A DNA stretch of 64,000 bases from an uncultured Eubacteriales bacterium (GCA_948695535.1 CAPRTS010000004.1:37608-101607), one strand, 5' to 3'; shown: positions 3,434-43,891, counted from the first letter of the stretch. A program made the numbers and translations. The notes: a model not told the origin generated them from the letters alone.

Positions 3434-4011
3434 CTTTTAATACCAACGCCTTTGGGAGTTAAAATGTATTCAGTTTGTGTGCGTTGCATAATGGTGCCAC
3501 CGATAGCGTTCATAAAACCACAGATATAGTCTAAATGCCGTTGTGCGTCCGCAATGTTGGCCAAAGAAACAATACACGCGTTACCACTGGCTAAATTGGA
3601 TAAAATGGCCGAAATTTCGGCGGGTGATTTTGGTGAAATTACCAATAAATTTTGGTTAGCCGTGGCTTGCCCTAATAAAGCGTTATTAAAAGTGGACGTA
3701 ACGTTGCTGCTGTACGCGTTAAATGTTTGTTGAGTTGGCGTAGGAGGTACTGGCTCGGTTGTTGCCGTAGTGGCTTTGGCCGTTGGTTCAGTAGTCGGGT
3801 GCACATTGGTATCGCCGTATAAAATGTATTCGGCGGCCAAACGTTTGTCGGTTGGTGTATTATCGGTAACCGGTGTTGGCTGTTCAGTAACTGGTTCGTT
3901 GGTCACTTCGGTTTCGTCTATGGCGGATTCGTCGTCCATGGCCGTTGGCGCGGGGTCTTTTTTCTTTTTTTCAATAGTTAAACCGTTTTTCAGTAAGTTA
4001 AATAATCCCAT
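3430..4011 (-). CDS. sepF: cell division protein SepF-like
   Basis: Low-complexity Pro/Thr-rich N-terminal half. The C-terminal ~80 aa (LLVISPKSPAEISAILSNLASGNACIVSL...AQRHLDYICGFMNAIGGTI) matches the SepF/DUF552 core pattern. Shares a TTAA stop overlap with map. Confidence 0.75.
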   Translation of the reverse strand: MGLFNLLKNGLTIEKKKKDPAPTAMDDESAIDETEVTNEPVTEQPTPVTDNTPTDKRLAAEYILYGDTNVHPTTEPTAKATTATTEPVPPTPTQQTFNAYSSNVTSTFNNALLGQATANQNLLVISPKSPAEISAILSNLASGNACIVSLANIADAQRHLDYICGFMNAIGGTIMQRTQTEYILTPKGVGIKS

Positions 4012-4070
4012 GATTAATTATGACCTATATTTTAATTGTTTGCAATTAGATTTATTGTTATAATTAAAGT

Positions 4071-5051
4071 ATGAGTAAAGTAACAATATTGGGCTGCGGT
4101 CGGTGGGCATCGTTCCACGCGTGGTACCAAAGCGAAAAACTGCATAATGAAGTAACAATGTGGGGACGGGCTGGTGACCCGATTTATGAAGCAGTTGTTA
4201 AAACGGGTAAAAACGCGTATATCGAGTTACCGAAAGGTATCAACTATACTACCGATTTGTTAAAAGCCGTGCGGTACGCGGATACAATAATCATTGCGAT
4301 TGCTGCCCAAGCGATGCAAAGTTTTGCAGTTACCCTTGGTAAATGCCAGCCAGAAAATAAAACGTTTGTGCTGTGTATGAAAGGCCTTGACCAAAACACG
4401 GGGGAACGGCTGAGTGAAATTTTGCGCAAAAATATCGATAAGAGTAATCACATTTGCGTTTGGGTAGGGCCGGGGCATGTTGAAGAACTGACGGCGGGGC
4501 AACCGAACGTGATGATTATCGCGGGTGATCATGCCGATACCGTGCGACGCGTGATTACCATGTTTGAAAGTCCGTTAATCTCAATTTTACGTAGTGACGA
4601 CATGATTGGGGTAGAAGTGGGCGCAGCCGCTAAAAACGTTATGGGTATCGCGGCGGGGTTTTTAGACGGTTTGGGAAAATCATCGTTAAAAGGTGCCTTA
4701 ATGGCACGTGGTTGCTACGAAGTGTCGTTGCTGATTGAAAAAATGGGCGGTAATAAATTGACAGCCTTTGGTATGAGTCATTTAGGTGATTTCGAAGCCA
4801 CTTTGTTCAGTAAAAACAGCCACAACCGACGCTATGGAGAAGAGTTTATCAAGGGGAAATTATCCAACGACATCGGTACCGCCGAAGGGGTAGCGACCAC
4901 AAAAGCGTTACATGGTTTAGCACAACAACTTGGGGTTATTATGCCTATAACAAACACTATATATAGTATTTTATACGAAGGGGCAGACAAAAACAATGTA
5001 ATTAAAGATTTGTTTAAACTTGTTACTCATCAGGAGTTTAATTATGAATAA
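4071..5051 (+). CDS. gpsA: NAD(P)H-dependent glycerol-3-phosphate dehydrogenase
   Basis: 326 aa with an N-terminal Rossmann-type [16 protein letters not shown], and [11 protein letters not shown], typical of GpsA. Confidence 0.85.
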
Positions 5052-6282
5052 TGAGTTTTTTTCTTATCACGTGGAACACCAATCGACAGAATGCTTTGCC
5101 CGCACGGGGGTGTTTAAGACACCACACGGAGAAATCCATACGCCCATTTTTATGCCGGTCGGGACACGGGCGTCGGTTAAGGGGTTGGCGCCCGAAGAAG
5201 TTGCCACCGCCGGCGCGGAAATCATTTTGGCGAATACTTACCATTGTTTTTTACGTCCGGGCAGTGAAACGGTGCAAAAAGCCGGCGGTTTGCATCAATT
5301 TATGCAGTGGTCACGCCCGATTTTGACCGATAGCGGTGGCTTTCAGGTCTTTTCCTTGGCAAATTCGCGGGTAATTGATGATGACGGAGTATCGTTCAAA
5401 AGTCACTTGGACGGCAAAACGTTCAAATTTACTCCGGAAAGTAACATGGCGGTGCAAGAGCAGTTGGGCGCCGACATTATTATGCAACTGGACATTTGCA
5501 TGCCGTACGGGGCTTCAAAACAAGCGGCCGCCGAAGCCGACGCGCGTACCTTTGCGTGGCTAAAAAGGTGTTATCTTGCTCATAAGAACCACAACCAGGC
5601 GTTGTTTCCCATTATTCAAGGCAATTTTTACCAAGATTTACGGCTGGCCAGTTTGCGCAACGCGTTACCGTATATTAAGCACGGGGTGGCGATTGGGGGC
5701 TTAGCAATTGGGGAACCGTTAACGGAGTTACGCACCCAGTTACAAAATTTGGCACCGCATTTGCCGACCGACGTTCCGCATTATTTAATGGGGGCGGGTA
5801 CGCCTGATTATATTTTTGAAGGGGTTGAGAACGGCATTGACATGTTCGACTGTGTGTATCAAACCCGCGTGGCGCGTAATGGCATGGCGTTGACCGACGA
5901 CGGGAACATGAATATCCGTAATACTAAATATAAGGAAGACTTTACCCCGATCCAAAGCGATTGCCAATGTTACGCTTGCCAACACTATACGCGTGCCTAT
6001 ATTCGCCATTTGGTGTTGTGTGGGGAAATGTTTGGTTTGCGGTTGCTGTCGATCCACAATATCCATTGGACGTTAAAGTTAATGGACAAAATTCGAGCGT
6101 CGATTAAAGACGACCGCTTTCTGGCCTTCAAGCACGAATTTTACGAGCGCTTTTACCACGGCGACCCGGCCGAGAAAGCGGTTAAAAAAGTTGCCACGAC
6201 GGGAATCGTCACGGGAAAGCCGCCTGCCGTTAAGGCGGGACACAGTCCCCTGAAAGCTAAAACAAAACCGTCAGCGAAATAA
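5044..6282 (+). CDS. tgt: tRNA-guanine transglycosylase (queuine tRNA-ribosyltransferase)
   Basis: [18 protein letters not shown], and Zn site CQCYAC...H. ATG at 5044 has a GGAG SD 7 nt upstream; the track ORF from 5020 is an upstream extension. Confidence 0.9.
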
Positions 6283-6334
6283 TTTCACGTGGTAAATGAA
6301 CGGCCAGTTGTGGTAAAAAGTTCATAAAAAACAC

Positions 6335-6363
6335 TTGTAACAGTGGGGTAATTGTGCTATAAT
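6335..6363 (+). promoter_or_regulatory. sigma-A-type promoter TTGTAA-N17-TATAAT (TG-extended) ending 7 nt before ATG 6371
   Basis: Hexamers read directly. No SD between the -10 box and the ATG, so the geometry is leaderless. Confidence 0.5.
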
Positions 6364-6393
6364 AATTTATATGAAAAATACGACCGAGAACTT

Positions 6394-42127: not shown

Positions 42128-42156
42128 TTGACAAATAGCGCATTTGTCATTATAAT
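42128..42156 (+). promoter_or_regulatory. perfect-consensus promoter TTGACA-N17-TATAAT with embedded 8-5-8 palindrome, 8 nt before the rplM ATG
   Basis: Read directly. TGACAAAT-AGCGC-ATTTGTCA spans 42129-42149. Confidence 0.65.
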
Positions 42157-42164
42157 TAACAAAT

Positions 42165-42617
42165 ATGATAGCACAAAAATCTTTTTTCGCAGACCAGCAA
42201 AATACTAAACGTGAATGGTTGCTAATTGACGCTACGGGTTTACCGGTTGGTCGTCTTTGCAGCCGCGTGGCTTTGATCTTACGTGGTAAGCACAAACCGA
42301 CTTATACACCGCATCATGATGCCGGTGATTACGTTATTATTATCAATGCTGAAAAGGCCATCTTTACCGGCAAAAAAATGACTGATAAATATTATTTCAG
42401 TTATAGTGGTTACGTTGGTGGTGATAAATATGTGCAAGCTAAGGAAGCAATGCACAAAAATCCGGCGTGGGTCATTGAACACGCCATCAAAGGTATGTTG
42501 CCCAAAAATTCTTTGGGTCGTGAAATGTTCAAAAAATTAAAAGTTTACAACAATGCGGAACACCCGCACGCTGCACAAAAACCGCGTAAGGTAGACATTA
42601 AAGGGAAGGCAAATTAA
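42165..42617 (+). CDS. rplM: 50S ribosomal protein L13
   Basis: [33 protein letters not shown], typical of L13. Followed by S9. Confidence 0.95.
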
Positions 42618-42619
42618 TT

Positions 42620-43024
42620 ATGGCAGTAAAGAAAAACACAGTAGCACAAACTTTGGGTACGGGGCGTCGTAAATCCAGCATCGCCCGTGTTCGCTTAGTG
42701 GCCGGTACGGGTAAGGTTATTATTAACCAAAAACCGTTGGAAGAATATTTTGGTGATGGTTTTATGCGCTTAACGGTTAATCAACCGTTCACTTTGTTAA
42801 ACGTGGCTACGTTTGACGCTTTGGTTACGGTCAATGGTGGTGGCTTAGCGGGGCAAGCGGGGGCAATCCGTCACGGTATTGCGCGAGCCTTGGTAAAAGA
42901 AGATGAAAGTTATAAAGCAGAATTGAAAAAGGCTGGTTTCTTAACGCGTGATCCACGTATGAAAGAACGTAAAAAATACGGCTTGAAAAAAGCCCGACGG
43001 GCGCCACAATTTTCAAAGCGATAA
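42620..43024 (+). CDS. rpsI: 30S ribosomal protein S9
   Basis: [14 protein letters not shown]...[19 protein letters not shown]...[25 protein letters not shown]. Confidence 0.95.
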
Positions 43025-43063
43025 TTATTTGCTTTTTGGTATTATATGGCGGTATAATATTTT

Positions 43064-43891
43064 ATGGCGAATATCAATATTGTTGCCGAGTTTGCTGGTG
43101 ATAATTTAAAATTATTCAAACGCGGGTTGGGTATCATTTTTAATGAGGAAATTAATCCGCAATTAAAAAAGGATATTCGCCGCGTAATGCCTGAACAACA
43201 ACAAAAAAAGATTGCCGTAGTGGCTGGTGCCGGGGCGACCGAAGAACGTACGGCTACTGAAAAAGCAATTTTATACAGTGCGGGTTTCTGCGAATTAGTT
43301 TACGTACAGCCTACTGTGGCCTTGGCGGCCTATTTTGGATACCAATTTAACGAAACAATGCCGGTAATGTCAGTAGTAATTGGTGAAGATGCAACTGATT
43401 TAGCGATTATTTTGGGTGATAAGATTTTGTACAGCGGCATCTTGGATATAGGGGTTAATACGTGTTTGTCGGCCATTGCTGACTTTATCAACGAAAAATT
43501 CAATGTGGAAATTGGCTACGAAAAAACAAGAGATATTTTTAACAACGTTGCGTCTTTATTACCAAATGACAGCCGTTTTGCTAAATATCCTGAATTTATT
43601 ATTAAAGCCGAACAGGTACGTGAAATTGTTTATCCGTTGTACGAACAAATAATTGGGGCAATCAACCACTTGTTATCGGAAGCCAGTGTTGAAATTATTC
43701 GACAAATTAACAGTACCGGAGTAGTGTTCGGGGGCATTGGGGCGGGCGTTCGCGGGTTACCGGAAGCGGTGTATTCCGTTATTGGGCTGCAATCTTTAAT
43801 TGCCGACGACCATAACAACGCGACTTTATTAGGAACTGGTAACTTATTAGCTGCTGGTAAAACGTTTCTAAAAATGGCAATTGACGCATAA
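43064..43891 (+). CDS. divergent MreB/actin-fold protein with degenerate nucleotide-binding motifs
   Basis: Collinear with MreB by eye. EFAGDNL replaces DLGTANT, VIGEDATD replaces DIGGGTTE, and FGGIGAGV replaces LTGGGALL. Subdomain IB region is shortened. 275 aa. Confidence 0.55.
   Translation: MANINIVAEFAGDNLKLFKRGLGIIFNEEINPQLKKDIRRVMPEQQQKKIAVVAGAGATEERTATEKAILYSAGFCELVYVQPTVALAAYFGYQFNETMPVMSVVIGEDATDLAIILGDKILYSGILDIGVNTCLSAIADFINEKFNVEIGYEKTRDIFNNVASLLPNDSRFAKYPEFIIKAEQVREIVYPLYEQIIGAINHLLSEASVEIIRQINSTGVVFGGIGAGVRGLPEAVYSVIGLQSLIADDHNNATLLGTGNLLAAGKTFLKMAIDA

Follow-up and report, generated by a model that had tools for sequence, protein, structure and literature searches.

Sigma-A promoters apparently positioned to give leaderless mRNAs at many operons of a small-genome Clostridia lineage

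Many operons of an uncultured Eubacteriales bacterium of the gut, represented by a 907-kb metagenome-assembled genome (MAG; 18 contigs, 82% completeness), very probably begin with ordinary sigma-A promoters placed so that their transcripts are leaderless. The arrangement was noticed in a 64,000-nucleotide (nt) stretch of this genome (C4:37608-101607, hereafter the window), for which the initial annotation described a -10 box just before the start codon without a Shine-Dalgarno (SD) sequence at operon-leading genes and SD motifs at internal or leadered ones, a description that every sequence test we ran has upheld. In the mechanism we propose, a housekeeping promoter (-35 TTGaca, 17-nt spacer, often a TGn extension, and TATAAT) ends 5-8 nt, mostly 6-7, before the start codon, so that transcription would start at the first base of the AUG or 1-2 nt earlier and produce an mRNA with neither a 5' untranslated region (UTR) nor an SD. 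Ribosome and fMet-tRNA would then bind the 5'-terminal AUG directly, while operon-internal genes, leadered genes and imported mobile DNA would keep the SD and depend on an intact anti-SD. This leaderless pathway is known from Actinobacteria, Deinococcus and archaea. We infer both the position of the transcription start site (TSS) and the mode of translation from the geometry of the DNA.

The whole genome was scanned for hexamers matching TATAAT in at least 5 of 6 positions, with A2 and T6 required, that end 5-8 nt before an ATG (d = 5-8). Such a box precedes 134 of 798 open reading frames (ORFs) called from their first ATG; in 200 shuffles that preserve dinucleotides the count falls to 27.1 ± 5.0 (z = 21). 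The same scan in offset windows leads to an expectation of ~33, against 134-135 observed in ~800 ORFs. An anchor-free search asked of each exact TATAAT in the genome how far downstream the ATG of an ORF of at least 100 aa lies; it yields 8, 29, 26, and 8 cases at d = 5, 6, 7, and 8, compared with ~2.5 per position elsewhere, and no peak was seen in this test for reverse or permuted hexamers. It is hardly credible that AT-rich intergenic DNA and the choice of start codons by themselves yield TATAAT-like hexamers near ATGs. Relaxed hexamers are frequent in AT-rich DNA, and choosing among all ATG, GTG and TTG candidates pushed our initial count of leaderless genes to 265, a figure inflated by the multiple testing that several candidate starts per gene entail and since replaced by background-corrected counts. 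However, the anchor-free peak stands at d = 6-7 only and the shuffles are far exceeded; in addition, more AT-rich relatives (27-30% GC) are depleted at d = 5-8 and show no peak, -35 boxes co-occur with the hexamer, and the excess is restricted to ATG. On these five tests we rejected an artefact of chance or composition.

The background-corrected excess amounts to 107-125 genes, and leaderless-type genes make up at least ~27% of candidate first genes. Enrichment of the hexamer is seen at first genes and not upstream of internal operon genes. Counting from the promoter instead, 305 promoter-like sites have a gene start no more than 250 nt away, and for 83 of them the distance is d = 5-8; this corresponds to 20.8 sites per nt, where other distances have 0.6-2.7, and after removal of background ~55-60% of recognisable promoter-to-gene pairs within 100 nt are of the leaderless type. 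The share of transcription units is thus bracketed between the lower bound from first genes and the upper figure from recognisable promoters.

To characterize the hexamer, 172 candidate sites were aligned on it, with the -35 region, the TGn position and the upstream composition playing no part in their selection. Exactly 17 nt upstream of the hexamer, T, T and G occur at 72, 57, and 52%; the G of the TGn position is present at 52%; an A-rich stretch lies 5' of the -35; and TTGACA is matched in at least 4 of 6 positions at 101 of the 172 sites, where ~25 are expected. Because this -35 TTG and the TGn were not selected for, these sites are best read as sigma-A promoters with +1 on or beside the A of the ATG; the -10 element of a sigma-70 promoter spans -12 to -7, so a gap of 6 nt places +1 on that A. 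One alternative is that the hexamer is an A/U-rich, non-SD translation signal within a longer leader, as in the Bacteroidota-like group B of GeneMarkS-2 or an S1-dependent A/U enhancer, with transcription starting farther upstream. Its distance of 5-8 nt from the start does resemble that of a ribosome binding site (RBS), and the upstream regions are A/T-rich, but we consider this very unlikely: the TTG at exactly 17 nt and the TGn serve no function in an RBS, the enrichment is confined to first genes, multi-domain S1 is absent from 18 of 18 genomes of the genus, and the 59-nt spacer between the divergent sepF and gpsA genes of the window fits two units back-to-back with no space for promoters farther upstream.

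The start codons agree with sigma-A promoters feeding leaderless initiation. The excess is 107 for ATG and ~0 for TTG, with GTG showing only a bump at d = 6 that includes polA; no excess was found at TTG, CTG, ATT or the remaining codons tested. Restriction to ATG is what would be expected of 5'-AUG-dependent initiation together with a purine at +1. Among leaderless-type genes, hidden SD-led in-frame starts downstream are no more frequent than expected (6 versus 6.7), and only 4 have an SD-led alternative start upstream. Profile alignments begin at the N-terminus for GpsA (position 1-2), L21 (1), the 5'-3' exonuclease domain of PolA (1) and Asd (4), and alignments of orthologues start within the first three residues in 19 of 27 and 28 of 35 cases, so we take these start codons to be the real ones. 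It is also conceivable that the promoters are real and the transcripts carry leaders of 3-10 nt, with initiation that is not strictly 5'-AUG, for example by 30S loading on an unstructured 5' end. Spacings of 7-8 nt are as frequent as 6, the choice of start by RNA polymerase varies by 1-2 nt, and published TSS maps usually count a transcript as leaderless when its UTR is under 5-10 nt. We regard such leaders as unlikely, since the modal spacing of 6-7 nt sets +1 at the A of the ATG or the preceding base and the strict preference for ATG suits 5'-AUG recognition; the usual operational definition would in any case class such mRNAs as leaderless.

Besides the probable leaderless genes, the genome makes wide use of SD sequences. 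AGGAG/GGAGG motifs peak at d = 5-12, and after background correction an SD serves ~39% of ORFs, which makes it the commonest start signal genome-wide and the genome a mixed one in its initiation signals. The internal or leadered genes that the initial annotation had set apart do have AAGGAG, GGAGG or AGGAG 5-12 nt upstream. 16S rRNA was not found in the MAG itself and that of relatives was used instead; in the own genus and in genus g3 its 3' end reads ...GGAUCACCUCCUUU, with the anti-SD CCUCC intact. The last part of the window is a cluster of mobile elements (45012-63890) with a large serine recombinase, an AAA_14/DUF4143 protein, a rolling-circle Rep, a tyrosine integrase, PcfJ and a 1278-aa BspA-LRR surface protein. 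This region of 45-64 kb is lower in GC (36-40%) and has 11 SD-led starts and 0 strong leaderless-type starts. Since the mobile DNA is SD-led, the host would still read SD mRNAs, and the leaderless signal is not something that the scan itself makes.

The distribution of this geometry was followed in 14 relatives, sampled at 25-200 kb apiece. Genomes of the own genus (g1) measure 0.6-1.0 Mb and those of its family (f1) 0.8-1.2 Mb, compared with 1.3-3.2 Mb in other families of the same Clostridia order in the genome database. The closest named relative, "Clostridia bacterium RGIG8633" from water-deer cecum, has an L13 of 91% identity, and the public rplM-bearing contigs retrieved by exact-protein lookup of L13 are all metagenomic. 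Three members of the own genus (G009, G008 and G007) show a -10 excess at d = 5-8 of +15%, +11% and +14% with SD at ~40-44%; genus g6 (G022) has an excess of +14% with SD at ~41%, and genus g3 (G019) one of +15% with SD at ~17%, from 45 kb only. In genera g7, g2, g5 and g4 (G023, G018, G021 and G020) the excess is zero or negative, with SD at 60-87% in the three well-sampled genera and 33% in G020. It is likewise zero or negative, with SD at 30-62%, in the four families sampled elsewhere in the order (G027, G032, G025 and G035), G035 having no more than a slight bump at d = 6-7. In the non-leaderless genera, -10 boxes peak 16-60 nt upstream of the starts.

In a maximum-likelihood tree of LepA, f1 is monophyletic (100/98), and the leaderless genera form exactly one clade, g1+(g6,g3), with support of 100/99. 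A single gain of the leaderless-type trait at the base of this three-genus clade is therefore the parsimonious reading of these sequences. Base composition differs within the own genus: GC is 40-47% per contig in the MAG and 36-50% in the window, and ~34% in the sampled regions of the same-genus relatives G005, G008 and G009, whose LepA is 83-85% identical to that of the MAG.

Orthologous genes follow the same division. The promoter of the rplM-rpsI operon in the window (42128-42167, plus strand; TTGACA-N17-TATAAT-N8-ATG 42165) is kept in all six of the genus genomes examined as TTGACA-N17-TATAAT/TATACT/TATATT-N7/8-ATG, despite their divergence, and in g7, g4, g2, g5 and relatives from the order, rplM has GGAGG or AAGGAG 6-10 nt 5' of its ATG. 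Within the genus, orthologues of leaderless-type genes keep the geometry in 14 of 20 and 20 of 32 cases; in the non-leaderless G023, G018 and G021, 22 of 36 such orthologues are SD-led and 3 of 36 leaderless-type, and in two order-level relatives 9 of 10 are SD-led. Median gaps between divergent genes are 86-126 nt in the leaderless clade versus 206-247 nt elsewhere, and this halving is consistent with each divergent pair having lost both of its leaders. Several SD-led relatives have a conserved motif, "TTAGCCCCT", 40-60 nt 5' of rplM (loci L168-L171, L174 and L175) that is absent from the leaderless genus and may be part of an unrecognised leader of the L13 operon or a terminator. The region upstream of rplM in these relatives gave no Rfam match at E ≤ 0.01, an L13-leader RNA included, and the only RNA families within the window are two tRNAs.

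Several points weigh against a leaderless reading of these operons, or limit its reach. By the strict count, leaderless-type genes are only 14-15% of genes, and many first genes carry neither signal; the statement of the initial annotation that the geometry applies to most operon-leading genes holds for 4-43 kb of the window and for promoters of recognisable consensus, but genome-wide it shrinks to that strict share of genes and the minimum of ~27% given above for first genes. In the sister genus g6, rplM has a promoter followed by a leader of ~35 nt, so the trait is gene-by-gene and not absolute. The relatives are represented by parts of their genomes, with G020 and G007 yielding few data, and the gene calls are our own, made by a first-ATG rule and codon log-odds. 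Judged from sequence, TSSs could also lie 1-3 nt upstream, leaving a very short leader, or be supplemented by additional promoters farther upstream.

All 14 sites listed for the window in the initial annotation, 10 as strong and 4 as weak, were found at their coordinates with the geometry described, and a purine-rich SD is present at none of them. At 10 of the 14 the -10 matches TATAAT in at least 5 of 6 positions and ends 5-8 nt 5' of the start codon, and the majority have a TTGnnn -35 at a spacing of 17-18 nt. The genes sepF and gpsA form a divergent pair. For sepF (4017-4045, minus strand; SepF domain found), the -35 TTGCAA at 4040-4045 is followed after 17 nt by the -10 CATAAT at 4017-4022 and after a further 5 nt by ATG 4011; for gpsA (4036-4073, plus strand), a -35 TTGTTT and a TGt-extended TATAAT at 4059-4064 lie 6 nt before ATG 4071. 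The 59-nt spacer holds both leaderless-type promoters back-to-back, their -35 boxes overlapping at 4036-4045.

The other promoter intervals given here are on the plus strand. A repeat-bearing gene is preceded by TTGTAA-N17-TGcTATAAT-N7-ATG 6371 (6335-6373) and carries (GCAA)n at its 5' end: ATG 6371 opens onto ~9-10 copies of GCAA and then an in-register stop, and a long ORF (6459-8315) runs on in a different frame, which reads as the classical layout of slipped-strand phase variation. No Pfam match was found for this gene. At yajC (8345-8382; TTGCTT-N17-TATATA-N6-ATG 8380; YajC identified) the position and spacing are as first reported; its strength had been overstated, since the -10 is weak and lacks the final T. 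The gene at 12889 has TTGCTA-N17-TATAAT-N7-ATG (12853-12891) and rplU has TTGACA-N17-TAATAT-N7-ATG 25733 (25697-25735). In both, the TTG of the -35 (12853 and 25697) is the spurious in-frame start of the ORF track, because d = 7 combined with a 17-nt spacer always puts this TTG in frame; the initial annotation had supposed several such cases, and these two were borne out. At polA (26662-26699) a TGt-extended TATAAT at 26685-26690 is separated by 6 nt from GTG 26697, one of the few leaderless-type GTG starts. The ClpX-like gene has TTGGTA-N17-TATGAT-N6-ATG 19338 (19303-19340) and the MreB-like gene TTGCTT-N18-TATAAT-N5-ATG 43064 (43029-43066). The ClpX homologue (19338-20435) aligns from profile position 58-65 only, the N-terminal zinc-binding domain missing, and the MreB-like protein (43064-43891, 275 aa) from position ~77-83 only; upstream stops leave no space for the missing N-termini of either gene. 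Weaker sites are those of asd (23059-23097; TAAACA-N18-TATATT-N6-ATG 23095), of a giant gene of 3257 aa (32308-32349; TTTACA, with AATAAT/TAATAT 6-8 nt 5' of ATG 32347) and of an mtaB-like gene (31274-31290; TAAAAT-N8-ATG 31288, a convincing -35 being absent). Direct reading agrees with the initial grading of this last site and of the SPFH gene at 10172 as weak.

Components of the translation machinery were compared among the genera. Loss of S1 as the cause is ruled out: the multi-domain protein is found in 0 of 18 g1 genomes and is also absent from the SD-led g2, g5 and g7, while it is present in the leaderless g6. Loss of bS21 is ruled out as well, the protein being present everywhere bar one incomplete MAG, as is loss or truncation of IF3, which is full length in all and only more diverged in g1. 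In YchF there is a clean in-frame loss of a helical domain of ~63 aa (~140-199 of TIGR00092) in g1 and g3 (loci L243-L247; G005:C4:147245-148159, G009:C8:169200-170117, G008:C11:60-974, G007:C39:2092-2940 and G019:C31:2496-3356). YchF is full length in the leaderless g6, in g2, g4, g5 and g7, and in relatives from the order; in the MAG itself ychF was not found, probably owing to an assembly gap. In Escherichia coli, loss of YchF stimulates leaderless translation (PMC8138138). We consider the loss of the helical domain a lead and not an explanation.

The initial annotation had also called the organism a spore former, for which we find no support in a genome of ~1 Mb. Spo0A in the MAG (C1:178768-179202), in g1 and in g3 consists of the C-terminal DNA-binding domain only, without a receiver (~186 aa), and the fragment in the MAG and its genus scores under the family cut-off; the other genera of f1 have full-length Spo0A. 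Since only this fragment is present, sporulation in genus g1 is doubtful.

We agree with the initial annotation that such a prevalence of leaderless-type genes is unusual for Firmicutes. Group C of GeneMarkS-2 takes in 90% of Actinobacteria, 97% of Deinococcus-Thermus and 3.4% of Firmicutes, and in its genomes, for example those of Mycobacterium tuberculosis and Deinococcus deserti, 25-50% of operons are leaderless (bioRxiv 10.1101/193490). Like group C, the present genome has a Pribnow box 6-8 nt before the first genes of operons, an SD about as far from the starts of the rest, and mixed signals that mislead gene callers, here through -35 TTG boxes called as starts. Unlike group C, this is a low-to-mid-GC Clostridia lineage of ~1 Mb in which the trait is limited to one clade within a family, and the signal comprises a complete TATAAT plus -35 and TGn in place of the TAnnnT of high-GC groups. 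Zheng et al. (2011) reported leaderless genes among Firmicutes only in two Lactobacillales clades, Lactococcus-Streptococcus and Oenococcus-Leuconostoc, and in Mycoplasma, with a mean of 4.2% and a maximum of 16.6% of genes (PMC3160421). The low-GC TAtAAT signal with TG extension and the patchy, clade-restricted occurrence are shared with those Firmicutes; however, theirs are Bacilli and Mollicutes, with no Clostridia clade reported, and the present lineage belongs to Clostridia, its genome standing on a stricter count at the top of the range reported for them. Within Clostridia, TSS maps show cultured species to be SD-led: Clostridioides difficile has 6-15 leaderless mRNAs and an RBS in ~90% of 5' UTRs (PMC7438776, PMC8237595), and in Clostridium phytofermentans 4% are potentially leaderless, retaining an RBS and another upstream TSS (PMC5171806). 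Both share their class, sigma-A consensus and SD with the present genome, and the SD-led relatives from the order that we sampled behave as they do. Searches of the literature turned up no report of leaderless genes for this lineage, for Patescibacteria, for Christensenellales or in GTDB-wide surveys. The mechanism is thus known, and its occurrence in this lineage and the switch within a family appear to be unreported.

Firmicutes, and Clostridia above all, have been treated as the most SD-dependent of bacteria, an assumption built into gene callers and expression tools. In MAGs of this kind start codons are miscalled when the TTG of a -35 box passes for one. Regulation through leaders, such as riboswitches, T-boxes and ribosomal protein leaders, would be unavailable to leaderless operons, and heterologous expression of leaderless-type genes would need a different design. 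The contrast between sister genera offers a tractable system for asking which changes in the ribosome, in IF3, in YchF or in genome streamlining accompany a switch of initiation mode. We tentatively suggest, as a possibility rather than a probability, that in the three-genus clade a quarter to half of the transcription units, until recently headed by short SD leaders, became leaderless by deletion of 5' UTRs, which halved the spacers, while the sister genera remained ~60-87% SD-led, and that a remodelling of initiation control involving YchF and IF3 either enabled this switch or came after it. If this conversion is true, family f1 would offer a natural before-and-after comparison for a change in the main mode of translation initiation.

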